From a virus: 64,000 bases of DNA. The translations under genes were made by a program, and so were the position numbers. Under the pieces are notes generated by a model. That model did not search any database. It had not been told where the DNA came from and worked only from the letters and a program-made list of their open reading frames with translations. Positions 12,598-64,000 of this stretch are shown piece after piece. Within the stretch, counting starts at the first letter, position 1. Each line of letters begins with the position of its first letter. The stretch lies in IMG/VR virus record IMGVR_UViG_3300008110_010375. One strand, given 5' to 3'.

Positions 12598-12625
12598 TTG
12601 ACATTTGAGTCAGCTGTTGTATAAT
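12598..12625 (+). promoter_or_regulatory. Sigma70-type promoter for primase
   Basis: TTGACA-N16-TATAAT. Confidence 0.7.
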
Positions 12626-23653: not shown

Positions 23654-23998
23654 ATGACAAACATCATTCAATTCCCAAAAAACAACTCAAACCCGTTCGG
23701 TCTTGAGCAGAACTCCCCCGATCTCTTGGTTGAGGTGCGGAAGGAGTTCTGCGACGAAGTCGTATCCGACGCGCTTGACGCGATCGTGGCGGTCTTCGCG
23801 AGCTACGGTATAGTATCCAAGGGCGACGTCTCATCCATCAAGGACATCGTCTTTCTCGAAGAGTCCCTCAAAGCTTTGACGTATCGTCATAAGAATCTAG
23901 AACACAGCCTTCATGAGATCATCGATCACACGATCACCATCTCCCCTGAGCTGGAGAAGCAGATCGAAGAAAAGTACACACAAAAAGATTTGACATAA
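23654..23998 (+). CDS. Hypothetical protein (NIIQFP N-terminus)
   Basis: 114 aa. Confidence 0.6.
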   Translation: MTNIIQFPKNNSNPFGLEQNSPDLLVEVRKEFCDEVVSDALDAIVAVFASYGIVSKGDVSSIKDIVFLEESLKALTYRHKNLEHSLHEIIDHTITISPELEKQIEEKYTQKDLT

Positions 23999-24018
23999 CC
24001 TACACGCCGTTATATAAT
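23990..24018 (+). promoter_or_regulatory. Sigma70-type promoter for rnh
   Basis: TTGACA-N17-TATAAT, perfect consensus. Confidence 0.85.
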
Positions 24019-47717: not shown

Positions 47718-49616
47718 ATGCCATCGAGTTATACATTTACCGCCGGTCAGATCCTCACCGCTTCGGACTTAAACAATAAGTTCTCGCAGACGGCGATCGA
47801 CGCAGCCAACGTATCCACGGCGAACGCCGGCACCTTGGCCGAACCTAGGCTTCCATATCGCATGAACCAGAACGTGCGGACGACCGACAGCGTTCAGTTC
47901 GTCGACGGCGTCTTCACGGGCAACCTAACTATATCGGGCACCACCACCTACGTCAACACCAGCGTCCTTGACATCAAGGATAAGAACATCGTCTTGGCGA
48001 AGGGATCGGCTAACGGGTCACAGGCAAACACGGGCGGCTTCACGATCGAGGGCGCTAACGTCGTGTTCCAGTACGACAACTCGTCGAACAACATAACGCT
48101 GACCCACCTTCTCAGCATCGGCAACTCAACCGTAAACGCGATCTTTGGCTTCGACGACACCTCACTTTCCGGCGGCCAGTTCATAGGCAACGTCAACAAC
48201 TACTTCCAAGTCATCGCCACGAACTCAAACACCGGCGTCAACGCGTCCGGCGACTTCGTCGTGGCCGACGACCAAGGCGTTGGTAGCAACAGCTACGTTG
48301 ACATGGGCATCAACAGCACGCAGTGGGCCAACAACCTTTGGACCATCAACGGCCCATCTGACTCATACCTCTACTCGCACGGCGGCGCGCTGGCGATAGG
48401 TACGGCTGAGAACTACCACACGAACTTCTTCGCGAATGGTACTCTCGCCAACAACGAGGCCATGAGGATCGACTCAGGCGCGAACGTCAACATCGGCAAC
48501 ACGAAAGCAGGCGCGACCTCACTGACGATCGGTAACACGACCGTCAACGTGGTGATCAACTCATCCTCTTTCAACATAAACACGGTCTTCACCGCGAACT
48601 CGACCGTAGTCAACGCGGCCTCCTATCGCGTCAACACTCAGTTCATAGCGAACACGACCGGCGTCTTCTCGACCGGAACCGTCAACGCTAACGCCTTCAC
48701 GACGACGACCGTCACGATCAACACTTTGGCCATCTCGGTCGGCGCGAACGTCACGATCAACACCACCTCACAGGCGATCGGTAACTCGACGGTCTACGCG
48801 AACGTGATAGCGGGCGAGATAACACTGTCGTCGAACAGCACCAACTCAGCTCTCGTTAACTCAACGTTCTTCACCGGAACTTCAAACAACGCACTTTACC
48901 TCGCGAACACCGCCGCGGCTATCTACGTAAAGAACACCGACTCAAGGACTCTCTCCGGAAACTTAGCTTTCTCCGGTGCCAACGTCTACTACAGCGACGG
49001 TTTCTTCGTCGGAACTAAGCTCGTGGTCAACACCAGCACTTTCTTCGTCGGCAACTCGACTGTAAATACCGTGACCACTGAGGGTCAAATCTCGCTCTCA
49101 GGCCAGACGATCAACTCCACCGCATACACGGGTCTGTCCTACACCGCGAACAACTCCTCGTACCTTGACGGTGTCGCTGCATCCGGATACGTTAACACCA
49201 CCGGTGCTTACACGATCTCAGGCGTTCACACCCACACCGCAAACATAGTGTTCAGCAATGGCAACGTGATCATAGCGAACGGTGGATTCGGCACCAACAC
49301 ACAGGTTCTCATCTCAAACGGAACCTCGATGTACTGGGGAACGTTCTCCGCGAACGACGCAGTCTCGTTAAACGGTGTCAACGCCACTTCATACGTGGTC
49401 AACACAGACTCAAGGACCCTGTCCGGCAACTTGGTGTTCTCAGGAGCGAACGTCACCGTGTCGGGCAACATGAGGTTCCAAGACGGTTCGCAGCTCATCG
49501 CCAACGGATCCTTCGGATCGGCCGATCAAGTCCTGATCTCAAACGGTTCAAGCATGTATTGGGGTTCGGGCGGTGTCAAGGTCTACTACGCTAACGGAAC
49601 TCAGGCTTACCCATAA
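47718..49616 (+). CDS. Tail fibre-like protein, Asn/Thr/Ser-rich
   Basis: GNLTISGTTTYVN...IKDKNI motif; internal duplications. Confidence 0.65.
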   Translation: MPSSYTFTAGQILTASDLNNKFSQTAIDAANVSTANAGTLAEPRLPYRMNQNVRTTDSVQFVDGVFTGNLTISGTTTYVNTSVLDIKDKNIVLAKGSANGSQANTGGFTIEGANVVFQYDNSSNNITLTHLLSIGNSTVNAIFGFDDTSLSGGQFIGNVNNYFQVIATNSNTGVNASGDFVVADDQGVGSNSYVDMGINSTQWANNLWTINGPSDSYLYSHGGALAIGTAENYHTNFFANGTLANNEAMRIDSGANVNIGNTKAGATSLTIGNTTVNVVINSSSFNINTVFTANSTVVNAASYRVNTQFIANTTGVFSTGTVNANAFTTTTVTINTLAISVGANVTINTTSQAIGNSTVYANVIAGEITLSSNSTNSALVNSTFFTGTSNNALYLANTAAAIYVKNTDSRTLSGNLAFSGANVYYSDGFFVGTKLVVNTSTFFVGNSTVNTVTTEGQISLSGQTINSTAYTGLSYTANNSSYLDGVAASGYVNTTGAYTISGVHTHTANIVFSNGNVIIANGGFGTNTQVLISNGTSMYWGTFSANDAVSLNGVNATSYVVNTDSRTLSGNLVFSGANVTVSGNMRFQDGSQLIANGSFGSADQVLISNGSSMYWGSGGVKVYYANGTQAYP

Positions 49617-51424: not shown

Positions 51425-54400
51425 ATGCCGACGCAGCTCAGCAACAACATCGCAACGACGATCAGCACGACATACCTCGATGACTTCAGCGAGTCGAAGA
51501 GGTACTATAAGATCTTGTTCAGACCGTCGACAGCGGTTCAGGCGCGCGAGCTCAACCAGATACAGTCGATGCTTCAGAACCAGATCTCGAGGCTCGGCGA
51601 CTACAGCTTCAAGGATGGATCGATCGTCGACGGCGTGGCGATCTCCTATAGGTCCAAGCTTCCATTCGTTCGTCTCAACGACACGTTCGTCTCCAACACC
51701 TCGCAGTCCGTGACTGTGTACGACAACGACTACCTGATCACCAACAGCTCGAACGGCACAATCGCCGTCAAAGCATACATCGCCTACTCGGCGCGCGGAT
51801 ACAAAGCCAACTATCCAGACACGAATCGCTGGTACCTCACCTACGTTCAGACCGGCAAGGACGGCTCGAACAACGACGTCAATGAGTTCCAGTCGGGCGA
51901 CACGCTCTACGTCTACAACACCACGCAGACGAAGTCAGCCGCTCTCGACGCAGGCAAGCTCATCGACACCATCACCGTGTTGACCACCAACGCGACGGTG
52001 AACGCCACCGGATACGGCTACGGCGTGACGGTTTCCGACGGCATCATCTACCAGAAGGGCTTCTTCTCGACGGTCAACACACAGACCGTGGTGGTTCGCG
52101 ACTACGACCAGAACGTCAACAACTACGTCGTCGGCTTTGAGACGACCGAGTCGATCGTCACCGAGAACCAAGACTCAACCCTTTACGACAACGCGATCGG
52201 TTCACCGAACTACAACGCTCCCGGCGCGCACCGCCTCAAGCTGACGCCGACCCTCGTCGCTAAGCTTAGGTCGACAGTATCAAACAACTTCTTCGCGATC
52301 GCCGAGTTTGAGAACTCAAACACCATCACCCAGAAAGCTTCATTGGACCCGTCCGCCCAGCTCATGGCGTCGATGGCCAAGAGGACCTACAACGAGTCGG
52401 GTGACTACGTCGTTCGTCCGTTCTTCCTCGACTCGGAAGCAGACGCGGCGAACACCTCGGCCTTCTACTACAAGCTTTCACCGGGTCTCGCTTACGTCAA
52501 GGGATATGAGGTCGAGAAGATCTCCGACGTCTACGTAAACGCTCCTCGCGCGGTAAACACCAACATTGAGAACAACATCGGCATCACCTGCAACATGGGC
52601 AACTACGTGATCGTCGACGAAGTCGAAGGTTTGTTCAACAACGAGACGCTCGCGGAAGTCACCCTCTACGACACCGCGCAGAACTCATTGTCGGATCGTG
52701 AGAACGCAAGCTCGTCACCTTCAGGCTCGATCGTAGGCTACGCGAACGTTCGCGGCATGCAGCACTACAGCGGCACCAAGGGTCTCTACACGACTCAGTA
52801 CGCCCTCTACATATTCAACATCCGCATGAGCTCAGGTAAGAGCTTCGCGAACGACGTCAAGAGCTTCTACTCGACCAACGGCGCGGGCTACGCGAAAGCC
52901 GACGCGGTCTTGGAATCCGGCGTCGCCGTTCTCAAGGACTCAACCCTCGCGGCCGCGGTGTTCCCAACCGGCTTCGATGCGGTTAAGACCCTCGTGGTCA
53001 ACGGCGCGGCGTCTTCAGACACCACGTTCAACTTCCGTCAGATCAGCTCAACCACGATGGCATCGAACGGATCGGCGATCTTCAATCTCGACACCGCGGC
53101 TTCGGGCGGAACCGAAAGGCTCGGCGTCTCGGTAGGCAACTACACGTCCGCGGCGATCCTCAACCAGTTCAACGTCGTGGCGGGAGCCGCAGCTTACTCG
53201 GCGAACATCGCGGGTTCGGTGTCCATCACTTCTGGCGACGCAAACGTGGTCGGCACCTCGACCACCTTCACCACTTCAATAGCGAACGGTGAGCTCATCA
53301 GGGTCGCCAACGCCACCGCGACTGTGTACTACCAAGTCAACCAAGTCTCGAACAACACGTTCATGAACTTGATCAGCATACCCGCGGCAACATACGCGAC
53401 GTACAACGTGGCCCACTACTATCCAGAAGGCCACCACTTCAACATCACTTCGGTCAACGCGATCGCGGGCGGAATCTCGTTCAACATCAACACGGGATTG
53501 ACATTAGCTTCGGGCTCGATGACGGTCTACGCCTCTTATCCGGTCAGCAAGTCGACCGCCGTCCAAGCAAAGAAGGACGCGAAGGAAGGCACTTGGGTCA
53601 AGATCGACTGCTCGAACAACGCGGCCACATCCGTTGGACCGTGGGACCTCGGCCTCGTCGACGTATACAACATCAAGAACATCTACGTCGGTACCACCTA
53701 CGCGAACACCAACCCTGAGCGCAAGCAGTGGTTCTCTCTCGACAACGGTCAGCGCGACGACCTATACGATCACGCTAAGATCTCGGTGAAGCCTCAGTAC
53801 GCCGCGAACATCACAGGTTCTACGAAGCTTCTCATCGAGCTCGATCACTTCGTCGCGAACACCTCGGCTGGTGTCGGCTTCTTCACAGTCGACTCATACC
53901 CGATCGACGACGCGAACACCGCGAACACCACGGCGATCACCACCGCTCAGATCCCAACGTTCCAGTCGAACAAGGGATACGTCGACCTTCGCAACGCGGT
54001 CGACTTCCGTCCGGTCAAGTACAACACGGCGACCGTGACGACGACCGTCGGTTCGGCCACGATCAACCCAGCGGTATCTAACACATCTTTCAACATCACC
54101 TCGACGAACCAATACATCGCGGAGCCGGACTCAACTTTCACCGGCGACTTCGAGTACTACCTCCCGCGCTGGGACGTGGTCACCATGGACGTTGCCGGCA
54201 AGGTGCTCGCTAAAGCCGGTCAGTCGGCAGTGATTCCTAAGGTTCCATACATCGAGAACGACGTCATGCCGATCGCGGAGGTGTTCGTTCCTCCGTATCC
54301 GTCGCTGAGCGTCAAAGAAGCTGAGACCTACGGGCGCAAAGACCTCTCGATGAGGATTTCGGTCAAGACCACCAAGCGCTACACGATGAAGGACCTCACG

Positions 54401-57187
54401 AGGTTCGACGATCGAATCAAGCGGCTTGAGTACTACGTCGTCCTCAACGCCCTCGAGCAGCAGGCGAAGGATATGAACATCCCGTCAGCAGCCGACCCAA
54501 CTCTCAACAGGTTTAAGAACGGCATCTTCGCGGATCCATTCAACTCGTTCAACAGCGCCGACGTCACAAACATCGAGTTCAAAGCCTCGATCGACGCCGA
54601 AGCGACCGTGCTTCGTCCGTTCTTCAACGCATATCCGGTCGACTTCAAGTACGACACCGCGAACTCGACCACCGTCATCAACGGCAGCACGGTCACCGTG
54701 CCATTCACACATGTCCAATACATTCGTCAGCCCTACGCGACGAAGTACAGGAACTGCACCGAGTCGGTCTGGCAGTGGAACGGTAAGGTCGACCTCTTCC
54801 CATCGTACGACTTCTATCGCGATGAGAAGCAGGCCAACAACATCAACGTCAACATCGACAACGCCACACCGTGGAAGGACTTCGCCAACTCTCCGTTCGG
54901 CACGAACTTCGGCGATTGGAGAACTACGGGCACCAGAACTTCGTCGAGCAGCACCAGCACCGGTCGCGGTGGAACGACCACCACGACTACGACGACCCAG
55001 ACCACTCAGCAGAGAACCGTGACCGATATAAAGGTCGATACGATCAACGAGAAGGTCGACCTCGGCAACTACGTCTCAGACTTCTCGATCAATCCATACC
55101 TTCGCAGCAGGATCGTTGCTTTCGTCGCAACCAACCTCAAGCCGAAGACCACGATGCACGTGTTCTTCGACGGTAAGAACGTCGATGCCTACTGCGCACC
55201 GGGAACTCTGAGCGGCGCGACGAATCCATCAGCCGGCAAGGAAGACTCAGTCGTTTCGCAGAACGGTGCTTATGGTTCCGCTTTAGTCAGCGACGGTGAC
55301 GGCAAACTCTACGGGTTGTTTAAGATCCCTGAAGGCATGTTCAGGACCGGCGATAGGGTTCTTAGGATAGTAAACGTCAGCGATCTTACTACAGGCGCTG
55401 ACGCCATCATCACTTCAGCCACCGGAACTTATTCGGGTCAAAACATCTCGGTCACCAAGCAGTCGACAACCCTGAACATCTCGCAGCCTAAGTTGTCGTT
55501 TTCGTCGAACACTCAGACAAACACTATCAGCACAAGCACGACTACAACCAGACAGAATCCTGACGGCCGTGATCGCGGCACTGATCCTATAGCTCAAACG
55601 TTCAAGATCAGTCGTCCGGAAGACGGATCTTCAGGCGTCTATATGTCGAAGATCGGCGTGTACTTCTACGCTAAGGACGACAACGCCAATAACGGAATCA
55701 CCGTTTACATAACTGAGACCGACAATGGGTATCCAGACACTTCGCTTATAGTAGGTGAAGGTCGTATCCTTTCTGGAAACGTCACCACAAGCTCAACAGG
55801 AACAGTTGAGACTCAAGTAACTCTTAATCAACCGGTGATGCTCACGGCAGATAAGGAATACGCCTTCGTCGTGATGCCTGACGGCAACTCACCTGAGTGG
55901 CTTATCTGGACGGCTGAGACCGGCGGTGTCGACGTCAACACCGGTGAGAATGTCTTCAGCAACCCATATTCAGGCATAATGTTCGTCTCGGCGAATATGT
56001 CGGCATGGACACCGCTTCAGAAGGAAGACATCAAGTTCAACATCTACCGCGCCTCGTTCTCGATCGGCACATACTACGCCTACTTCAACAACGAAGACGA
56101 CGAGTACATCACGACTTCAGGCTTCACCCGCGCGAACTCAGCGGTCGCCGTTGAGATCGGCGACTTGGTCTACAGCGCGAACTCAACCGGCGGACCAAAC
56201 ACCGCGGCGAACGCGGCCTTCGGTAGGGTCCAATACGTCGACGAGTCGAATGGTGTGATCTACATCGATGGTTCAACCAACGGTAAGTTCTACGCGGCAA
56301 ACAACATCAATGTCTACAGGACTCCGGATCCGGCGAACACGAGCTACATCACGAACACCTACCTGATCGCCAACGCGACGATCAGCACGGTCGACAACTT
56401 GCAGTACCAAGCCGTCGTTCCTAAGTTCGCCACGATCCAACCGATCCTAACCGACATCTTCTACGACTTCAAGGGAACCGACGGTTCATACGTCAAGGAC
56501 ACCTCGTACCAGAAAGTCGTCGGTGAGCTTGAGTATGAGTACTTAGATAAGTCTAGGTACGCTGTCAGTAAGTCCAACGAAGTCGCGAGCATGTCCAGCG
56601 CGAAGTCCTCTTCGTTCAGGATCGCGCTTGGAACTTCGACCTCATACGCATCTCCAGCGATCGGTCTCGGCCGCAAGTCTTCGCTGTTCGTGAAGAACAT
56701 CATCAACAACGACGCGACGAACGAGTACACACGCTACGGAAGCGCGAGCACGAAGTACGTGTCAAAGAGGGTTGTATTGGCCGACGGTCAAGAAGCCGAA
56801 GACCTCAAGGTCATGATCACCGCCTACAGGCCGGTCGACACCGACGTCAAGGTCTACGCTAAGTTCTGGAACGCGTCGGACCCTGAGACCTTCGACAGCA
56901 AGAACTGGACGCTCATGTCGTACCTCAACGACACCGACCTCGTCTACAGCAGCCCGACGGACAGGACGAACTTTTATGAGTATGAGTTCGGTGTACCCGC
57001 GACGACGACTTATACGAACGACGCCTACCTCGACGCGACGAACAGCAGCATCTTGACCTACGTCAACGCGGCAAGCTCTAAGTTCTCAAGCTACAAGATC
57101 TTTGCCGTCAAGATAGTTCTTCTATCATCGAACGCCGTCAGGATCCCGCTGATAAACGACATCAGGGCCGTGGCGCTTCAGGTATAA
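51425..57187 (+). CDS. Large virion structural protein (DUF4815/VrlC-like)
   Basis: YLDDF, ILFRP..AVQARELNQIQ, APGAHR, RTYNESGDY, KRYTMKD, RFKNGIFAD, DPIAQTF. Confidence 0.85.
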   Translation: MPTQLSNNIATTISTTYLDDFSESKRYYKILFRPSTAVQARELNQIQSMLQNQISRLGDYSFKDGSIVDGVAISYRSKLPFVRLNDTFVSNTSQSVTVYDNDYLITNSSNGTIAVKAYIAYSARGYKANYPDTNRWYLTYVQTGKDGSNNDVNEFQSGDTLYVYNTTQTKSAALDAGKLIDTITVLTTNATVNATGYGYGVTVSDGIIYQKGFFSTVNTQTVVVRDYDQNVNNYVVGFETTESIVTENQDSTLYDNAIGSPNYNAPGAHRLKLTPTLVAKLRSTVSNNFFAIAEFENSNTITQKASLDPSAQLMASMAKRTYNESGDYVVRPFFLDSEADAANTSAFYYKLSPGLAYVKGYEVEKISDVYVNAPRAVNTNIENNIGITCNMGNYVIVDEVEGLFNNETLAEVTLYDTAQNSLSDRENASSSPSGSIVGYANVRGMQHYSGTKGLYTTQYALYIFNIRMSSGKSFANDVKSFYSTNGAGYAKADAVLESGVAVLKDSTLAAAVFPTGFDAVKTLVVNGAASSDTTFNFRQISSTTMASNGSAIFNLDTAASGGTERLGVSVGNYTSAAILNQFNVVAGAAAYSANIAGSVSITSGDANVVGTSTTFTTSIANGELIRVANATATVYYQVNQVSNNTFMNLISIPAATYATYNVAHYYPEGHHFNITSVNAIAGGISFNINTGLTLASGSMTVYASYPVSKSTAVQAKKDAKEGTWVKIDCSNNAATSVGPWDLGLVDVYNIKNIYVGTTYANTNPERKQWFSLDNGQRDDLYDHAKISVKPQYAANITGSTKLLIELDHFVANTSAGVGFFTVDSYPIDDANTANTTAITTAQIPTFQSNKGYVDLRNAVDFRPVKYNTATVTTTVGSATINPAVSNTSFNITSTNQYIAEPDSTFTGDFEYYLPRWDVVTMDVAGKVLAKAGQSAVIPKVPYIENDVMPIAEVFVPPYPSLSVKEAETYGRKDLSMRISVKTTKRYTMKDLTRFDDRIKRLEYYVVLNALEQQAKDMNIPSAADPTLNRFKNGIFADPFNSFNSADVTNIEFKASIDAEATVLRPFFNAYPVDFKYDTANSTTVINGSTVTVPFTHVQYIRQPYATKYRNCTESVWQWNGKVDLFPSYDFYRDEKQANNINVNIDNATPWKDFANSPFGTNFGDWRTTGTRTSSSSTSTGRGGTTTTTTTTQTTQQRTVTDIKVDTINEKVDLGNYVSDFSINPYLRSRIVAFVATNLKPKTTMHVFFDGKNVDAYCAPGTLSGATNPSAGKEDSVVSQNGAYGSALVSDGDGKLYGLFKIPEGMFRTGDRVLRIVNVSDLTTGADAIITSATGTYSGQNISVTKQSTTLNISQPKLSFSSNTQTNTISTSTTTTRQNPDGRDRGTDPIAQTFKISRPEDGSSGVYMSKIGVYFYAKDDNANNGITVYITETDNGYPDTSLIVGEGRILSGNVTTSSTGTVETQVTLNQPVMLTADKEYAFVVMPDGNSPEWLIWTAETGGVDVNTGENVFSNPYSGIMFVSANMSAWTPLQKEDIKFNIYRASFSIGTYYAYFNNEDDEYITTSGFTRANSAVAVEIGDLVYSANSTGGPNTAANAAFGRVQYVDESNGVIYIDGSTNGKFYAANNINVYRTPDPANTSYITNTYLIANATISTVDNLQYQAVVPKFATIQPILTDIFYDFKGTDGSYVKDTSYQKVVGELEYEYLDKSRYAVSKSNEVASMSSAKSSSFRIALGTSTSYASPAIGLGRKSSLFVKNIINNDATNEYTRYGSASTKYVSKRVVLADGQEAEDLKVMITAYRPVDTDVKVYAKFWNASDPETFDSKNWTLMSYLNDTDLVYSSPTDRTNFYEYEFGVPATTTYTNDAYLDATNSSILTYVNAASSKFSSYKIFAVKIVLLSSNAVRIPLINDIRAVALQV

Positions 57188-57190
57188 ATA
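57183..57190 (+). promoter_or_regulatory. Late promoter TATAAATA
   Basis: Exact consensus at the head of the fibre/modification gene run. Confidence 0.6.
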
Positions 57191-57387
57191 TGAACAGCAA
57201 CGAAAGCTTAAAGAGATTAGGCTTCAATCCCGGCGCGGTGGTAAACACCGATGCCCTTGGTCTCAAGGCGTACCGCGAGGCTCGAGAGCGCGTCAGGCAG
57301 AGGAACAAAGACTTTGATCAGCTTAAGACCGACGTCGATGAACTTAAGTCTATGCTGAGTCAGATACTAGAGAAGTTGGACAAATGA
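57190..57387 (+). CDS. Small coiled-coil protein
   Basis: GAVVNTD...ELKSMLSQILEK. Confidence 0.65.
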   Translation: MNSNESLKRLGFNPGAVVNTDALGLKAYREARERVRQRNKDFDQLKTDVDELKSMLSQILEKLDK

Positions 57388-57998
57388 CGATAGCCATCGC
57401 AAACGTAGATACGACGACCGACTCATTCGGTCAATGGATCACGAAGACAAACGTCTTATCCGACGCGATGTCGAACAAAGTCGTGACGACCGATTCAAAC
57501 ACAGCGGTCGGTAACGCCGCGATCTCATCGGCTTTCTCGGCGAACGCCCTCTACGCGAACACGCTGTCCGGCGGCAACAACTCGGTTGCGGCTGCCCTGT
57601 CGGTCGCGACCAACACCTCATTCGCCGCGAACGTGGCCTTCAACGGATACAGGACAAACCTTGGTCTTGGCGCGAACGTATCGATCAACTCAGGCAACAG
57701 CACCTTCAGGGTCTTGACGGTCAATTCGGCGGCCTCGAACACGGTGGTCGCCACGAAGATCACGACCTCGGACCTCTCGGACGTAAACACGTCTTCGGTC
57801 GGCAACGGTCAGGTTCTGGTCTACAGCTCAGGCAACAGCTACTGGTACAACACCAACGCTGTGAACATAAATACATCTACGAACACAGTGACTTTCTCAG
57901 GAAACATCGTCGTGACGGGCATCCAATACTCGAACGGTCAGTCGTTCAGCTCATTGGTGGTCTACTACGCGAACGGTGTTCAAGCATTCCCAACGTAA
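57384..57998 (+). CDS. Short fibre-like virion protein
   Basis: DSFGQWITKTN N-terminus, DLSDV...GQVLVY repeat, shared C-terminal YYANG motif. Confidence 0.65.
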   Translation: MTIAIANVDTTTDSFGQWITKTNVLSDAMSNKVVTTDSNTAVGNAAISSAFSANALYANTLSGGNNSVAAALSVATNTSFAANVAFNGYRTNLGLGANVSINSGNSTFRVLTVNSAASNTVVATKITTSDLSDVNTSSVGNGQVLVYSSGNSYWYNTNAVNINTSTNTVTFSGNIVVTGIQYSNGQSFSSLVVYYANGVQAFPT

Positions 57999-58007
57999 GC
58001 GTAAGAC

Positions 58008-59105
58008 ATGGCAGCGCTACTTAAAATAAACACGGCTACCAGTCCGGTCTCACTGAAGCAGGCTTTAGGCACTGACTACGACTACGCGGTCGACCTTATA
58101 CTTACGCAGCTCATCGCGTCGTCGTCGAACGCCAACATAACGGTGAATCCTGCGAACACGACGGGATTGACCCTGATAGGCACCTTCACCGATACGTATC
58201 TAAACGCGAATCCGGGTGATCACCCCATCGGCACGACACCGCTCTCTGTGACCTACAACTTCTACCAAGACCAGCAGGCGGCAGCTGAGACCATCACCAG
58301 ACCCGTTGAGTTCGACACCGGCATCAAGGAGCAGAACGACACCGCTCTCAACGCCGACTTGATCTCAACGGCACTCGCGAATTTAGTCTCCGCGGGCGTG
58401 GGTTCATACGCGCTCCAGACGAGCTCGCCGGTCGGCGGCACATGGGTCTCAACATCTACGATCACAAACACCCTCGACGCTTCGACCACGAACAGCACCC
58501 AGCTTTGGAAGAAGACAGCGGCGGCTTCGACCCCTTCAACCCTACGTCCGATCAAGCTCAATACGGCCACTTCTCCGATCTCATTGAAGGAGATGTCGGA
58601 CGCTGAGATTCAATCGCTCGCGACAAGACTCAAGAACAGGATCGTCGCGACGGGCATAGGAACCTATAAAGTTCAAGCCACCACGCCGGCCGGCGGAACT
58701 TGGGTTACATCGGGCACCGCGTTCTTGGACACGACCAGGACTTCATCGGCCTTATCATACTCTGGTACGTATTCGGGTACGTACACCGGAACTTACAGTG
58801 GAACCTACAGTGGAACCTACTCAGGCACCTACACCGGAAGCTACACCGGCTCATACACCGGAAACTACACCGGTGGATACGTCCCGTTCTACAACGGCTT
58901 CGCCGGTCCTACGTACTTTGGTACGTACACGGGCTTCTATACTGGAACGTATACAGGAAACTACACCGGCAATTACACCGGTTCTTACACCGGTTCTTAC
59001 ACCGGATCATATACGGGAAGTTACACAGGCGGCTACACCGGCGATACGTTAAATAACGACAGCAGCACTGTTTCAACAATATACCTTTGGGTAAGGACGG
59101 CATAA
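58008..59105 (+). CDS. Virion protein with Y(T/S)Gx tetrapeptide repeat region
   Basis: Two duplicated N-terminal domains, then two runs of YxGx repeats around a unique loop. Confidence 0.7.
   Translation: MAALLKINTATSPVSLKQALGTDYDYAVDLILTQLIASSSNANITVNPANTTGLTLIGTFTDTYLNANPGDHPIGTTPLSVTYNFYQDQQAAAETITRPVEFDTGIKEQNDTALNADLISTALANLVSAGVGSYALQTSSPVGGTWVSTSTITNTLDASTTNSTQLWKKTAAASTPSTLRPIKLNTATSPISLKEMSDAEIQSLATRLKNRIVATGIGTYKVQATTPAGGTWVTSGTAFLDTTRTSSALSYSGTYSGTYTGTYSGTYSGTYSGTYTGSYTGSYTGNYTGGYVPFYNGFAGPTYFGTYTGFYTGTYTGNYTGNYTGSYTGSYTGSYTGSYTGGYTGDTLNNDSSTVSTIYLWVRTA
58758..59045 (+). repeat. Degenerate 12-nt tandem repeat (tacaccggnnnn) encoding YTGx
   Basis: Seen directly in both DNA and translation. 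Confidence 0.9.
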
Positions 59106-59106
59106 C

Positions 59107-59541
59107 ATGGCAAGGAAGATCATAAATCCTAGGTGGGCTAACGACGAGAAGACCGTGATTCTCGCTACCTTCAGGTACGACGACGGTCGTGAACTGGTTG
59201 CTTCCATCAGCAACGTCAACGATACGTTGAATCCCGATTGGAAGGAGATCATGGACACGTTCGGCGTTGAGCACCTTGATCAGAACACGGGCGACGCCCT
59301 TGAGAGCCACATGAAGCGTAAAGCTGAGAGGGCTGAGCGCGCGAAGATCGATCAAGATCGCGCCATCAAGGAGCAGCTGTTCAACCTCAAGGCTGAGGCG
59401 TTCGACATGGAGATCGTGAAGAACTCTAAGAATCGCGACATCAAGAACAAGATTCGCCGCGCAGCGACTCCAACTGAAGTCTTGGTCTACACCGCGCTTC
59501 TTCACATGCTCGAGGACCCGTTGGCCAAACCGACGGCTTGA
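59107..59541 (+). CDS. Hypothetical protein, possible fibre assembly chaperone
   Basis: NPRWANDEKTVI start; helical C-terminus; follows the repeat protein. Confidence 0.45.
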   Translation: MARKIINPRWANDEKTVILATFRYDDGRELVASISNVNDTLNPDWKEIMDTFGVEHLDQNTGDALESHMKRKAERAERAKIDQDRAIKEQLFNLKAEAFDMEIVKNSKNRDIKNKIRRAATPTEVLVYTALLHMLEDPLAKPTA

Positions 59542-59542
59542 T

Positions 59543-60292
59543 ATGAACGGATTCCTATACGTAGCTTCGCAGAGCTCGGCCTACTACAAGGCGGCCGTGC
59601 ACTCAGCCATATCACTGCGCGACAACTATCCTGAAGCAAACATAACCCTGTTTACCCACGAAGTGCTTCTTCAGGAGTCGGATCGCAAGTACTTCGATAA
59701 GATCGAGACTGGGATCCCGATCCATAAGCGCGCCAAGATGTACGCGATGGCTAGAACACCGTACGAGAACACGCTCTACCTAGACGCAGATACTGAGATT
59801 AGATCAGAGAATATCAAAAAAGTATTTGACATCCTAGGTAAGAATGATATAATGTTTACTAGGATTATACCAAAAGTTTCTAAAGACACCGTCATCGATA
59901 GGAACAACAACCTTGAATACCACGGCGGTGTGATCCTCTACAACTCAAAGAAGCTTACCCTGCAGCTGATGCAGGATTGGTATGAGACCTACCTGATCCA
60001 AGACACGTGCCAGTGGGATCAGAGTCCATTCGCGAAGTACAACCCAAGGATGAAGCCGTGGGATCAGTTCACCATCTGGTACCTGTTGAACGCCGATCCT
60101 AAGTACAAGAAGGTGAAGCACGCGATGTTTCCCAGCGGCGGGCACTCGTATAACTTTATAAATCTACTTGAGAACTACGAGGAGTTCAACGAGGTTGAAC
60201 AGATCGTATATCACTACACAATTCCACGTGACAGGGTCGCCAATGCTTTCTATATCTCGCCTAAATCCGGATTTAACTCGAATTTTAACTGA
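59543..60292 (+). CDS. GT-A glycosyltransferase (nucleotide-diphospho-sugar transferase)
   Basis: GFLYVA, TPYENTLYLDADT (DxD), HGGV, WDQF. Confidence 0.75.
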   Translation: MNGFLYVASQSSAYYKAAVHSAISLRDNYPEANITLFTHEVLLQESDRKYFDKIETGIPIHKRAKMYAMARTPYENTLYLDADTEIRSENIKKVFDILGKNDIMFTRIIPKVSKDTVIDRNNNLEYHGGVILYNSKKLTLQLMQDWYETYLIQDTCQWDQSPFAKYNPRMKPWDQFTIWYLLNADPKYKKVKHAMFPSGGHSYNFINLLENYEEFNEVEQIVYHYTIPRDRVANAFYISPKSGFNSNFN

Positions 60293-60902
60293 GTTCAGCG
60301 ACTTCTTCTACGGCCGCGACTTCAGCCACCTCGAGCCGCTCATCGGTTCCAACGAGAAGATGAGGAACGTAAGCGTTAAGTCTCTGGCGCATGAAGCCGT
60401 GAGCGAGACCTACCTTCGCGAAGCGCTGAAGCAGCCTCCGATCAAGCACGGCTTCCCTAGGCACTCTTGGGGGTTGGAGCTCGTCATGGATCGCAGGTAC
60501 ATCGAGGACAAGGAGCTTCTTGATAAAGCCGCGGCCGCGAACAGCAAGCTGATGAACTTCTTCGGCGCGCGAAACAACGCGCTCCAGATGTTCTATCCGG
60601 CGGGAGGCTACATCGGTTGGCATAACAACTGCAACGCTCCGGGATACAACATCGTCCTATCATGCAACCCTGAGGCGAAGGGCTACTTCGAGCACTATGA
60701 CCACGTCAACGATAAGTTCGTGAGGTTCGACGACGCGGCGGGCTGGAACTGCAAGGTCGGGTACTTCGGTTCCGACAAGGAAGATAAAAAGATCTACTGG
60801 CACTGCGCCTACACCGACAGCCCGCGCTTGACCTTCAGCTACGTCATCTACGACAAGAACATCTGGGCGGACATGGTCGATGACATTGGAACGCCCGATT
60901 AA
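60243..60902 (+). CDS. 2OG-Fe(II) oxygenase-like protein
   Basis: FYPAGGYIGWHNN ... WHCAY...RLTFSY (HxN...H...RxT). Confidence 0.6.
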   Translation: MLSISRLNPDLTRILTEFSDFFYGRDFSHLEPLIGSNEKMRNVSVKSLAHEAVSETYLREALKQPPIKHGFPRHSWGLELVMDRRYIEDKELLDKAAAANSKLMNFFGARNNALQMFYPAGGYIGWHNNCNAPGYNIVLSCNPEAKGYFEHYDHVNDKFVRFDDAAGWNCKVGYFGSDKEDKKIYWHCAYTDSPRLTFSYVIYDKNIWADMVDDIGTPD

Positions 60903-61647
60903 ATTCATATGTTTGAAGTGGGGTGATAAGTATGGACCCGAGTACGTCAACAGGCTTCATGAGTCAATACGCAGGTTCTATCGCAAGCCTCATCGCTTTC
61001 TTTGTTTTACTGATGACGCTCGAGAGCTTCGGCCGGAAATAGAAGTAAGGGACATAGAGCTCCTACGAACGGTGAAGAACGACTGCTTCACGATGGAGAA
61101 GTTGTTCCTGTTCGAAGGCCTCGACTTCGAAGGTCCATACGTCCTTCTCGACATAGACATACTCATACAGTCCGACTTGACCGCGTACTTCGACGAGTAT
61201 CGCTTCGAGGAGCCGAGGTTCTCTATAAGCGCGAGACCGCACACCGACGTCGACTACGTAAAGATCGCTCCCGTATTCAAAGACTATGGGACCTGCTACG
61301 TCAACAGCTCGTTCGTGACTTGGGACGGAGACCAGCTGAAGTGGCTGCCTGAGTTCTACTTAAAGAACAAGACCATCATCGACTACAAGTACAAAGACCT
61401 CGACACGTTCTTGTTTCACACTGTGTTGAGGAGGCTGAAGTTTCACCCGAGATCGATGATATACTCCTTCAATCATGAGAAGGGTTGGCTCGATTCACCT
61501 ATAGTCATGTTCAACACCTCGCACGGAAGGGGCGTCGAGCTGCACGAGGGACCTACTTGGGCTCGAGACCTGTGGGAATCGTTCGATAGTGTATCAAGAT
61601 CCGTTCGTCTTCCAGACGAACCTGCTTCTGAGCGGCCGTCGTCATGA
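60880..61647 (+). CDS. GT-A glycosyltransferase (KWGxKY family)
   Basis: ICLKWGDKYGPEYVNRL, CFTD, LDIDIL, NSSF. Confidence 0.78.
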   Translation: MTLERPIKFICLKWGDKYGPEYVNRLHESIRRFYRKPHRFLCFTDDARELRPEIEVRDIELLRTVKNDCFTMEKLFLFEGLDFEGPYVLLDIDILIQSDLTAYFDEYRFEEPRFSISARPHTDVDYVKIAPVFKDYGTCYVNSSFVTWDGDQLKWLPEFYLKNKTIIDYKYKDLDTFLFHTVLRRLKFHPRSMIYSFNHEKGWLDSPIVMFNTSHGRGVELHEGPTWARDLWESFDSVSRSVRLPDEPASERPSS

Positions 61648-62200
61648 TCTTCTTTGGAAAGTAGGCGACCCTTCCGTACTTATTGATGAATGTGTCGTCA
61701 CCGTAGTGCTCAGTCGTGTGCTTGAATATGTCGGACATAAGCATCTCAAAGAGGTAGTGGTGTGAGTCTCCCACCCATCCCATGACGGATGAGTTCCCGT
61801 TGCAGAAGAACCTCTCCTTGTTCTTTTGATCGAGCTTATCGACGAGCCTCCACCACTTCTCATCCTTCCAAACGGTGTCGACAACTTTGAGAACGCCCTG
61901 CCTCACCTCATCGACGAGGAAGTTAACGTTTCCCCTGATCAGCGTATCAAGGTCGAAGTATAAGTTGACTCCGGGACCGCTCACTTCGCGGCTGAAGAGT
62001 GCCACCTTGTTCCACCAAGTATCGAGCTCGAACCTCGTCGCGTCTATGAACTCGATGGGTCTGTCGGTCTTCCACTCAGAATCGGTCAAGCATATGAACT
62101 TGAAGTTACGCGTTAAATACTTACGAACTTGGTCGTAGAGCCTCTCGACGTGCTCGATTGAGTACGATGGTTTTACCAATACACAGTATACGTTTATCAT
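61553..62200 (-). CDS. GT-A glycosyltransferase (same family, opposite strand)
   Basis: MINVYCV...YSIEHVERL, ICLTD, WWNKVALF, YFDLDT, NSSVMGW, YGDD. Confidence 0.78.
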   Translation of the reverse strand: MINVYCVLVKPSYSIEHVERLYDQVRKYLTRNFKFICLTDSEWKTDRPIEFIDATRFELDTWWNKVALFSREVSGPGVNLYFDLDTLIRGNVNFLVDEVRQGVLKVVDTVWKDEKWWRLVDKLDQKNKERFFCNGNSSVMGWVGDSHHYLFEMLMSDIFKHTTEHYGDDTFINKYGRVAYFPKKIMTTAAQKQVRLEDERILIHYRTIPTGLEPK

Positions 62201-62909
62201 GGATGAGACAGTCAAGTTTATAGTTTTGAAGTGGGGAACCAAGTACGGTCCTGAATACGTTAACAGGCTATTTAGGACGATAAAGGCTACGTACTCAGGT
62301 CCGTTTGAGTTCTACTGCTTCACCGACAACAGCCGCGGCGTTGAGTGCAGGACGTATCCGATCGAGATGCTTCCGCACTTCAACTCAAACGTATTTACCG
62401 CCTGCAAGCTCGATCTCTTCAACAAGATCCCGTTCAAGGGTCCGTACTGCTTCCTCGACTTAGACGTCTTGGTGCTCAAGGACTTGAAGCCCTACTTCGA
62501 TGAGTACGGATTCAAGGAGCCTCGGATGATCTACAACTACTGGACCGAGATCGAGAGGATCTACAAGTCGTACTACACGGGCGACTGCTACGTCAACAGC
62601 TCGTTCGTGACTTGGACGGACGACCAGCTCAAGTGGATGTATCAGAAGTTCTTTGAGAACAAAGAAGTCATCGGATATAGGTTTAAGACACTGGATAAGT
62701 TCATCTACTACAGCAGCCGCAAGCAGATGAACTATCATCCCCGTGGGATCGCCTATGCGTACAGCTTCGGCGCCGAGTATCCAAACGACCTCGAACCATA
62801 CAAATTGCGCGATCAGTACGTAGCTATCTTCAACACTTCACACAAGAAAGGCGTCGAGCTTCACGACGCGGATGGATGGGCTAGAGATGTTTGGACCCGG
62901 CACGACTGA
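62199..62909 (+). CDS. GT-A glycosyltransferase (paralogue of 60880-61647)
   Basis: LKWGTKYGPEYVNRL, CFTD, LDLDVL, CYVNSSFVTW. Confidence 0.78.
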   Translation: MDETVKFIVLKWGTKYGPEYVNRLFRTIKATYSGPFEFYCFTDNSRGVECRTYPIEMLPHFNSNVFTACKLDLFNKIPFKGPYCFLDLDVLVLKDLKPYFDEYGFKEPRMIYNYWTEIERIYKSYYTGDCYVNSSFVTWTDDQLKWMYQKFFENKEVIGYRFKTLDKFIYYSSRKQMNYHPRGIAYAYSFGAEYPNDLEPYKLRDQYVAIFNTSHKKGVELHDADGWARDVWTRHD

Positions 62910-63519
62910 GCTTGACTACATCAAGGACTTGGATAAGATCCACGGAGAGATCTTCAAGCACCTCAACAGCCGAGGGCTTGAGTACGTCTACAGACTCTAC
63001 GCCATGCACAACGATCCAAAGATGCGAAACCGCAACTTCATAGCGATGGATCGCATACGCGCCAACTTCAAGAAGCTCGATAGGGTCGCCATAGTCGGAA
63101 GCAGCAGCCCGATCGCATTGACGCACTTCCTCAAGAAGGAGTACAATGCGAAGGTCACCCTCGTCTCGGACCATCCGTCGTTCGAGCTGTCGATCGGTTT
63201 CTTTGAGAGGTTCTTCAAAGCCGAGACGATCTTCAAGAGCGTCTTCTTCGAGGACGTCGACCTGAGCGGTTTCGACCTAGTCGTCCTGCCGGAGTTCGAG
63301 TACCTAGTTCCCTTGGATATGTTGAATCACGTGCACTTCGGCGACTCACTGATACTCGCCCTTCAGCACATCCAGCACGTCAACGATCACAACAGTCGAC
63401 ACGTGGTGATGAGCGTCGAAGACCTGCTTGAGCTTCTGAACCTTAAGCCGGTCTTTGAATCCGGCTCAGAGCTCAACATCGACGGAAGGAACGTCTACTA
63501 CGCCTTAGGTACGCGCTGA
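62872..63519 (+). CDS. Rossmann-like / degenerate methyltransferase-like protein
   Basis: RVAIVGS, FDLVV, EYL; start position uncertain. Confidence 0.4.
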   Translation: MDGLEMFGPGTTELDYIKDLDKIHGEIFKHLNSRGLEYVYRLYAMHNDPKMRNRNFIAMDRIRANFKKLDRVAIVGSSSPIALTHFLKKEYNAKVTLVSDHPSFELSIGFFERFFKAETIFKSVFFEDVDLSGFDLVVLPEFEYLVPLDMLNHVHFGDSLILALQHIQHVNDHNSRHVVMSVEDLLELLNLKPVFESGSELNIDGRNVYYALGTR

Positions 63520-63999
63520 CTTCTTCTTCATCTCGATGTAGAGTCTATCGAGACTGTCCTTCTTCAGGGTCACAAGCTCGCAGCCGTACCTTTCCGAGAG
63601 AGTGAACGCGTCCTTGAAGCTCCATGGATAGATGTCGATGTAGTAGCCGCGTGGGTGATTCACGCCTGTGTTCGCCCTGATGTATATCGACCCACCCTTC
63701 TCGGTCAAATCGATCACCTTCTTCATCCTCACCTCGATGTCCTCAAACTGACCAAAGTTCACGCTTCCAAAGACTATCACGTGATCGTAGCTCTCGTTTG
63801 GAACGTCGAAGTCTAGGATGTCGACCATGTAGTCCGCGGCCTTGTTGGCTATATCGATCCCGATTAAGTTGTTGATCTTCCCCTTGAACAGGTTGTACCC
63901 GCAGCCGACGTCTAAGACCGAACGGGGGTTCCTTGAGTTGATGAGGTCAACGATCTTCCAACCGGTGTACTCGAACTCATCGGTCCTAGGAAACCAAGT
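63505..63999 (-). CDS. Class I SAM-dependent methyltransferase, 5'-partial
   Basis: The open frame extends to the window edge: VLDVGCGYN...IGIDI...YDHVIVFGSVNFG. Confidence 0.75.
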   Translation of the reverse strand, partial: TWFPRTDEFEYTGWKIVDLINSRNPRSVLDVGCGYNLFKGKINNLIGIDIANKAADYMVDILDFDVPNESYDHVIVFGSVNFGQFEDIEVRMKKVIDLTEKGGSIYIRANTGVNHPRGYYIDIYPWSFKDAFTLSERYGCELVTLKKDSLDRLYIEMKKKSART

Positions 64000-64000
64000 T

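Follow-up and report, generated by a model that had tools for sequence, protein, structure and literature searches.

We analyzed a 64,000-nucleotide stretch of viral DNA (IMG/VR record IMGVR_UViG_3300008110_010375; hereafter, the window), in which a gene encoding a 365-amino-acid (aa) protein with a tyrosine-threonine-glycine (YTG) repeat array leads into a region of enzyme genes that we refer to as the island. Directly behind the repeat gene lie the genes of a 144-aa partner protein, of a 249-aa glycosyltransferase (GT) resembling glycogenin (the GT8-like protein), and of a 219-aa double-stranded beta-helix (DSBH) protein of the prolyl-hydroxylase type, followed by three predicted transferases of the KWGxKY family and by methyltransferase-like genes. 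The island extends ~5.5 kb past the window end at 64000, where we read it in L002, a 152,654-bp Joint Genome Institute (JGI) contig of the same phage that was matched by exact protein (window position = L002 position + 52,871). Within the window, the genes are tightly packed, with gaps of at most 9 nt and otherwise overlaps. An earlier, sequence-only reading of the window had listed these elements as running without gaps downstream of a late promoter, and each of them was found in place, with the amendment that the middle KWGxKY gene and the second methyltransferase gene sit on the minus strand.

The repeat protein and the three core genes

The 365-aa protein (58008-59105, plus strand) consists of an N-terminal region, a tetrapeptide array, and a C-terminal tail. 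Its array of [Y/F]-[T/S/A]-G-x units spans residues 251-346 (58758-59045, plus strand) and comprises 10 units, a unique aromatic loop, and 11 units, all in register as [Y/F]xGx in the two arms on either side of the loop. We counted 20 [YF][TS]G motifs in the protein versus 1.3 in shuffled sequences, with comparable enrichment in no other protein of the window, in line with the earlier description of a hydroxyl-rich Y(T/S)Gx repeat protein. Metagenomic homologues, of which there are more than 950 from freshwater and marine samples, follow a common plan: an ~245-aa N-terminal region with a repeated 14-residue motif, the array, and a conserved tail ending in LWVRTA. Across these homologues, the array copy number ranges from 5 to 65 units, while the enzymes stay. 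Upon quantifying the composition of 1964 units from 120 homologues, we found Tyr (82%) or Phe (18%) at the first position, Thr (54%), Ser (25%), or Ala (12%) at the second, Gly at the third, and mainly Thr, Ser, or Asn at the fourth. Searches of the repeat protein or its N-terminal region against Pfam and PDB returned no relative; the N-terminal region and the repeats do match a 3347-aa protein of Phage C48C1, described below. The idea that Y-T-G is a virion-wide sequon was rejected, the only protein beyond the repeat protein with even a slight enrichment being one of 632 aa (5 vs 1.4). A reading of the repeat protein as resembling a ribosomally synthesized and post-translationally modified peptide was likewise set aside, given its large conserved folded region and its position in the fibre module.

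The following gene (59107-59541, plus strand) encodes the conserved 144-aa partner, for which neither the protein nor its family found a relative in Pfam or PDB. It had been called chaperone-like, a label that nothing but gene position backs and that we have dropped.

The GT8-like gene (59543-60292, plus strand) encodes a glycogenin-like retaining GT-A glycosyltransferase, as judged from its predicted structure and catalytic motifs. The model of the 249-aa protein (predicted local distance difference test, pLDDT, 94.4) shows the GT-A (nucleotide-diphospho-sugar transferase) fold and matched glycogenin with a Foldseek E of 4e-10 and a VIA Z of 17.8 (root-mean-square deviation 2.7 Å over 185 residues), which places the first enzyme after the repeat gene, previously proposed to be a GT-A enzyme, in that class at the level of the fold. 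The top 26 entries among the structure matches were all glycogenin, followed by AgtA (Z 15.8), GlyE (Z 15.6), and GT6 enzymes. K65 and D81-x-D83 are invariant among 32 sequences of the family, and the family profile aligns K65/DxD with the K...DAD segment of glycogenin; against PDB, all 12 matches of this profile were glycogenins, at weak E-values (~0.3). Because Pfam does not recognize the protein, with no family found at E up to 0.1 and no match to Glyco_transf_8, we name it GT8-like and not a GT8 member. No equivalent of glycogenin's self-glucosylated Tyr was identified in it.

The DSBH gene (60243-60902, plus strand) has its true start at 60243 and overlaps the preceding GT8-like gene by 50 nt. 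It encodes a protein of the prolyl hydroxylase domain/prolyl 4-hydroxylase (PHD/P4H) type with the pattern H127-x-N129 ... H187 ... R195. Its model (pLDDT 95.3) matched PHD2 with a VIA Z of 11.3 (3.5 Å, 144 residues aligned), and its top Foldseek match was P. putida P4H (E 2e-5), with Dictyostelium PHD, OGFOD1, and PBCV-1 vCPH as further fold matches and with AlkB, FTO, and other nucleic-acid oxygenases lower in the lists. H127, N129, H187, and R195 are invariant among 66 DSBH sequences. R195, which comes 8 residues after H187, is a candidate ligand of the 2-oxoglutarate (2OG) C5-carboxylate by its inferred placement in the pocket, and we take the H-60-H-8-R spacing to be comparable to H313/H374/R383 of PHD2. 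The protein had been described as a 2OG-Fe(II)-like oxygenase, which stands as far as the prolyl-hydroxylase-type fold is concerned and fails at the acidic metal ligand, which is replaced by the invariant Asn129; oxygenase activity is therefore no more than plausible. The family comprises 787 clusters. Searches of PDB by sequence or profile gave nothing useful for it, the ESM Atlas returned viral hypothetical clusters only, and an hhalign comparison between the two DSBH families was not significant.

Co-occurrence and expression of the core genes

We selected IMG/VR loci by the GT8-like protein alone and compared the best 80 of at least 479, at 39-83% identity. In all 80 loci, the 144-aa gene adjoins the GT8-like gene directly upstream, and the repeat protein is encoded upstream in each of the 70 loci that carry more than 900 bp of upstream sequence. 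Grouped at 80% identity, these loci fall into 31 clusters, and the repeat gene is present in every one of them, while DSBH and KWGxKY genes are present wherever the sequence leaves room. In seven diverged contigs whose repeat proteins are 40-61% identical, the order of repeat protein, 144-aa protein, GT8-like protein, DSBH protein, and then KWGxKY transferases is unchanged; the flanks of these contigs vary: upstream lie VrlC, Mtd_N fibres, or Laminin_G proteins, and downstream gp13 or long fibres.

Among 50,697 GenBank phage records, the repeat, GT8-like, and DSBH proteins each matched only Phage C48C1 (Kyanoviridae), and a tblastn search with the KWGxKY and GT8-like proteins found no match in cultured phages besides this one. 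In C48C1, the 3347-aa repeat protein, annotated as hypothetical (L017 11839-21882; OQ984149.1 141011-151054) and carrying Y-T-G-x-like arrays along much of its length, is followed by homologues of the 144-aa, GT8-like, and DSBH proteins (E 6e-16, 3e-29, and 5e-28, respectively). This cassette holds the repeat protein and the three core genes and no other island gene, and it sits among tail-fibre and fibre-assembly genes. Elsewhere in the C48C1 genome lie two further DSBH paralogues, a nucleotide-sugar epimerase, and a UDP-glucose dehydrogenase.

Co-occurrence of YTG-repeat genes with these transferases, suggested earlier as a check, was thus clearly found in the seven contigs, in the 70 loci and 31 clusters, and in C48C1. 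The minimal unit is four genes, those of the repeat protein, the 144-aa protein, the GT8-like protein, and the DSBH protein, and because they are never separated across such divergence, they almost certainly work together. KWGxKY transferases, at one to four per locus, are near-constant additions in the metagenomic relatives, and the lineage-variable island genes comprise methyltransferases, sulfotransferases, adenosine 5'-phosphosulfate (APS) kinase, a second oxygenase, radical-SAM (S-adenosylmethionine) enzymes, a DegT aminotransferase, a weak GT25 match, and importers of the SSF or TctA type.

The T4-type late promoter motif TATAAATA lies at 57183-57190 (plus strand), where a late promoter upstream of the cluster had been proposed, and overlaps both the stop codon of the preceding VrlC gene and the ATG of a 65-aa gene. 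It occurs 10 times in the window versus 0.37 expected, with all copies oriented with the genes, and its next copy downstream is at L002 16605 (~window 69476), just ahead of a fibre-assembly-like gene. As there is no further copy until that point, the repeat gene and the plus-strand island genes share one late-promoter interval. A perfect sigma-70 promoter (TTGACA, 16 nt, TG-n-TATAAT) is located inside the GT8-like gene at 59826-59853 (plus strand), ~390 nt upstream of the DSBH gene, and recurs at unchanged codon positions in relatives whose GT8-like proteins are 62-83% identical. Perfect sites of this kind (TTGACA, N16-17, TATAAT) number 3 in the window versus 0 in 100 shuffles, the other two being at 12598-12625 and 23990-24018, and one more is found at L002 11398-11428, upstream of the first sulfotransferase gene. 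This arrangement of motifs suggests that the enzyme genes may be transcribed early, separately from the late promoter serving the repeat gene. Within the GT8-like gene, the TATAAT is completed by an ATA Ile codon; other lineages have a perfect sigma-70 site ~500 bp upstream of the GT8-like gene instead.

A proposed decoration system and its alternatives

We propose that the cassette and island form a dedicated system by which one repeat protein receives sugars and, variably, methyl or sulfate groups, a proposal that we hold to be about evenly poised between right and wrong. From the observed folds, catalytic motifs, and strict synteny, we infer the substrate, the modified residue, the chemistry, and the location on the virion along the following lines. 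The 365-aa protein would contribute its long [Y/F]-[T/S]-G-x array, set between a folded N-terminal region and a conserved C-terminal tail. The core enzymes would, possibly as a prior step, hydroxylate the array, and an O-linked oligosaccharide would be started on it, at Thr/Ser, at a hydroxylated residue, or at Tyr, and then be extended. The glycan might then be tailored by lineage-specific enzymes, namely methyltransferases, sulfotransferases (accompanied in one relative by APS kinase), radical-SAM enzymes, an aminotransferase, and a 2OG oxygenase of the canonical kind, with importers as a possible source of precursor. The outcome would be a fibre on the particle surface that resembles a mucin or proteoglycan.

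In favor of this proposal, for both core enzymes the closest structural relatives have proteins or protein-bound glycans as their substrates, and the array offers a regular hydroxyl-rich surface whose motif is confined to one protein of the window. The placement of the cassette among fibre genes and within a single late-promoter interval, and the persistence of the enzymes while the array copy number varies, also speak for it. The core genes are, furthermore, inseparable from the repeat gene, and DNA or host lipopolysaccharide (LPS) is therefore less likely as the main target. The sequence-only reading had held that the cluster hydroxylates, glycosylates, and methylates virion proteins and not DNA; the linkage to the repeat gene agrees with its exclusion of DNA and likewise speaks against LPS, but points to one dedicated protein as the target and not to virion proteins generally. 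Several observations weigh against the proposal. Pfam placed no transferase in a CAZy-linked family, and the closest structural relatives are only 10-17% identical. The core DSBH protein departs from the canonical H-x-D/E...H triad, with an invariant Asn at the acid position in all 66 sequences, and DSBH paralogues occur outside the cassette, in three places in C48C1 and in a replication-module context in the contig L099. The importers (TctA and SSF) are not obvious parts of a protein-glycosylation pathway, and the conserved perfect sigma-70 promoters in the island, with the early expression that they suggest, would also suit a host-directed role.

In a more specific form, to which we attach only a slim likelihood, the array would act as a tyrosine ladder or multi-site primer, on which the GT8-like protein starts chains at Tyr or at residues hydroxylated by the His-His-Asn protein, and in some lineages Sulfotransfer_3 enzymes (with APS kinase) would sulfate Tyr or the glycan. 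If true, this would be the first viral proteoglycan-like sulfated fibre, made wholly by phage enzymes in the bacterial cytoplasm.

Instead of acting on the repeat protein, the island might remodel the host envelope (LPS, capsule, or exopolysaccharide) for superinfection exclusion or receptor masking, with the repeat gene as a mere neighbor. GT clusters of cyanomyoviruses are usually interpreted in this way (PMC12801897), and the idea would fit the perfect sigma-70 promoters, which imply expression by unmodified host polymerase, as well as the importers (TctA together with a 354-aa gene that has a putative signal-peptide-like start; SSF in a relative) and the moron-like differences in island gene content from phage to phage. 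We nevertheless consider it unlikely: the core enzymes are linked to the repeat gene without exception over the 31 clusters and in C48C1, the latter retains just the repeat protein and the three core genes, and no flippase, polymerase, or ligase is annotated in the loci examined, where no search was aimed at them. Base modification is far less probable still, to the point that we would be surprised to see it borne out. T4-like phages glycosylate DNA, and the transferases and oxygenase-like proteins could in principle decorate hydroxymethylated bases of the phage genome, for which the presence of AlkB, FTO, and similar oxygenases further down the fold-match lists might be cited; yet the genes lie in a fibre module and are strictly linked to the repeat protein, the proteins that fit the folds best are hydroxylases of proteins and GT8 enzymes directed at proteins or glycans, and no role in DNA modification is known for sulfotransferases or importers.

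The repeat protein might also be coupled to the enzymes without being their final substrate, which we regard as rather improbable in any of its versions. In one version, it would resemble glycogenin in serving as the primer or scaffold for a polysaccharide that is let go once grown; in another, it would be a lectin or adhesin with the island's product as its ligand; in a third, it would be an unmodified beta-rich fibre whose regular Thr face, for instance, orders water, binds ice, or adheres to a surface. Arguments for these versions are that glycogenin, the closest match of the GT8-like protein, primes itself, that the array with its arms of 10 and 11 units is extremely regular, and that, with Phe in place of Tyr (18%) and Ala in place of Thr/Ser (12%), no single acceptor residue is strictly kept. 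A purely structural role, however, leaves unexplained why three enzymes with intact catalytic motifs are never parted from the repeat gene, and the conservation of the two protein ends, the N-terminal region and the C-terminal tail, resembles that of fibre attachment and assembly modules.

The proposed glycosylation of the repeat protein can be compared with several known systems. To our knowledge, phage virion glycosylation has so far been demonstrated only in a few actinobacteriophages. Virion O-glycosylation is described for the mycobacteriophages Che8, Corndog, and Myrna (Freeman et al. 2023, as cited in PMC12582341 and PMC11256854). GT genes of these phages, too, are placed next to structural genes, with products presumed to modify virion proteins of the phage itself within the cytoplasm. 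The mycobacteriophage substrates are reportedly capsid and tail-tube subunits, whereas the system described here has a dedicated tetrapeptide-repeat protein as its putative substrate, an extra hydroxylase-like protein, methyltransferases, sulfotransferases, and importers, and probably Gram-negative aquatic hosts.

In giant viruses, Mimivirus encodes the collagen-modifying L230 (lysyl hydroxylase and glucosyltransferase) and R699 (PMC9546862, PMC5802723, PMC12279948), and sets of GTs and methyltransferases build glycans (PMC9614988). Common to L230/R699 and the present locus are a virus-encoded hydroxylase or hydroxylase-like protein of the 2OG-oxygenase fold, GT-A transferases, and a repetitive viral protein known or predicted to be a fibre. 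In contrast to Mimivirus, the array here is Y-T-G-x and not collagen G-x-y, hydroxylase-like protein and transferase have separate overlapping genes, and the former resembles prolyl and not lysyl hydroxylases and has an Asn where the acid ligand would be. The closest solved structures to the 249-aa protein come from glycogenin, the Skp1 pathway (P4H1, then Gnt1/PgtA/AgtA), and GlyE (serine-rich-repeat glycoprotein), all of which build glycans on protein; as for the Skp1 pathway, a Dictyostelium prolyl hydroxylase is among the fold matches of the DSBH protein. Glycogenin starts on tyrosine, and the Skp1 pathway requires prior hydroxylation. Unlike these relatives, the 249-aa protein lacks a Pfam Glyco_transf_8 match and is just 14-17% identical to glycogenin, AgtA, and GlyE. 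Cyanomyovirus clusters of GT and 2OG-oxygenase genes (S-SCSM2R, P-SSM2), finally, have been read as host cell-wall or surface modification or as DNA modification (PMC12801897). They resemble the present locus in belonging to aquatic T4-like phages with many transferase genes in hyperplastic regions but are not tied to a repeat protein. None of the mycobacteriophage, Mimivirus and giant-virus, and cyanomyovirus systems has a Y-T-G-x substrate, a His-His-Asn hydroxylase-like partner, or sulfotransferases.

With the cassette present in at least 479 IMG/VR contigs and over 950 relatives of the repeat protein, sugar-coated fibres may be common in aquatic T4-like phages that are nearly absent from culture. 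With one putative substrate and three core genes, the compact system could serve as a model for cytoplasmic glycosylation of a repetitive protein, and it raises the role of a 2-His/Asn hydroxylase-like protein and the effects of a glycan or sulfate coat on host recognition, particle stability, and grazing. If our proposal is true, the annotation of transferase clusters in cyanomyovirus-like genomes would change.

Further island genes, source phage, and fibre module

The three KWGxKY genes encode a 255-aa predicted GT-A glycosyltransferase (60880-61647, plus strand), an ~215-aa predicted GT-A paralogue (61553-62200, minus strand), and a 236-aa predicted GT-A glycosyltransferase (62199-62909, plus strand) recognized by its alignment with the family and a PHROG match. 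They represent two subtypes that have CxTD, a Lys, DxD, and N-S-S in common; the minus-strand protein belongs to the second subtype and has orthologues in every related locus, and an ATG at 62200 retains its first beta-strand, which a shorter gene call leaves out. In the 255-aa protein, CxTD, K74, D91-x-D93, N-S-S, and D175 are invariant, with K74, D91-x-D93, and N-S-S invariant over 16 sequences of the family. The proteins match phrog_1962 ('glycosyltransferase') at E 5e-11 to 3e-4, the minus-strand paralogue at E 5e-11 and the 255-aa protein also among them, and the family profile found LgtC (GT8) as its top match in PDB, where 21 of 22 matches were GT8 enzymes including glycogenins, albeit weak (E at least 0.047). 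Pfam gave no match for these proteins, a tblastn search with one of them found no match in GenBank phages, and an hhalign comparison of the GT8-like and KWGxKY families was not significant.

Next to them lies a gene for a probable class I SAM methyltransferase-like protein of 215 aa (62872-63519, plus strand), a language-model lead only (ESM Atlas score 0.93 to methyltransferase clusters) with no Pfam match and with a 35% identical orthologue in the related phage contig L008. A putative SAM methyltransferase gene with the motif I LDVGCGYN is cut by the window end (63505-64000, minus strand, its 3' part), and its whole product is 256 aa (L002 10634-11404); its matches to Pfam Methyltransf_11/23/25 are below cut-off (E 0.03-0.06), and paralogues occur in related islands. 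The earlier naming of three KWGxKY GT-A enzymes and methyltransferase-like genes thus probably holds, as DxD GT-A paralogues and SAM methyltransferase-like proteins. Among ten window proteins searched, Pfam gave no significant family.

Beyond 64000, L002 shows the rest of the island: two genes for sulfotransferase-like proteins, one for a further methyltransferase, one for a TctA permease, and one each for products of 243 aa and 354 aa. The sulfotransferase-like proteins belong to a P-loop family with the motifs GAPGSxWS and KSH, in which 5 of 10 members match Sulfotransfer_3 (best E 4e-5). The TctA permease is full-length (L002 12713-14158, ~window 65584-67029; Pfam E 9e-87), and the 354-aa gene (L002 14887-15951, ~window 67758-68822) has a putative signal-peptide-like hydrophobic start and no Pfam match. 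At a similar island position (L008 16296-17726), a related phage carries a sodium:solute symporter (SSF) and also an APS kinase, and the presence of phage importers beside sulfotransferases hints at uptake of a precursor. The 243-aa protein (L002 14155-14886, ~window 67026-67757) represents a second oxygenase-like family with a canonical H-x-D...H...R pattern; it is found again in many related islands and stands apart from the core DSBH protein, whose acid position is taken by Asn. Searches of the sulfotransferase-like and 243-aa families against PDB by sequence or profile gave nothing useful.

After the island, L002 encodes a 108-aa fibre-assembly-like protein and two collagen-like/Mtd_N fibre proteins, such that the cassette is flanked by VrlC and small-fibre genes on one side and by collagen-like and Mtd_N fibre genes on the other. 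In the two long fibre genes (L002 16970-18679 and 18680 onward, ~window 69841 onward), stretches of collagen-like G-x-y (Pfam Collagen E 5e-10) are interspersed with short motifs that recur, and one of the genes starts with an Mtd_N domain. An enzyme resembling prolyl hydroxylases might act on their products as well. We set these collagen-like fibres aside as the hydroxylase target, as the linkage is to the repeat protein and the L012 locus that we examined has no collagen-like genes.

The phage is a T4-like, aquatic, uncultured phage, and its relatives suggest that the host may be an alphaproteobacterium. A blastn search of the 7-kb region against GenBank phages and a search of the window end in IMG/VR gave no match. 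Upstream of the repeat gene, a VrlC/DUF4815 tail protein of 1920 aa (51425-57187) has its best cultured relative in Rhizobium phage RHph_I1_18 (43.6% identity), followed by T4-like phages of Stenotrophomonas, Caulobacter, Sinorhizobium, and Pelagibacter. The gene order in RHph_I1_18 is baseplate wedge, VrlC, small fibre genes, lysozyme, neck proteins, and terminase.

Of two fibre-like genes called between VrlC and the repeat gene, the first instead encodes a small virion structural protein of 65 aa (57190-57387, plus strand; phrog_473, E 1.9e-9), whose homologues come after VrlC in RHph_I1_18 and C48C1. The second is indeed fibre-like (204 aa, 57384-57998, plus strand), with only weak PHROG matches and a conserved N-terminal module, residues 1-77 being 65% identical to the N-terminus of a 959-aa protein of L008. 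The last 11 residues of this 204-aa protein (57960-57995) match the C-terminal end of the 632-aa protein (47718-49616; site 49581-49613) at 82% identity, and the tail common to both may be a shared assembly or docking tail.

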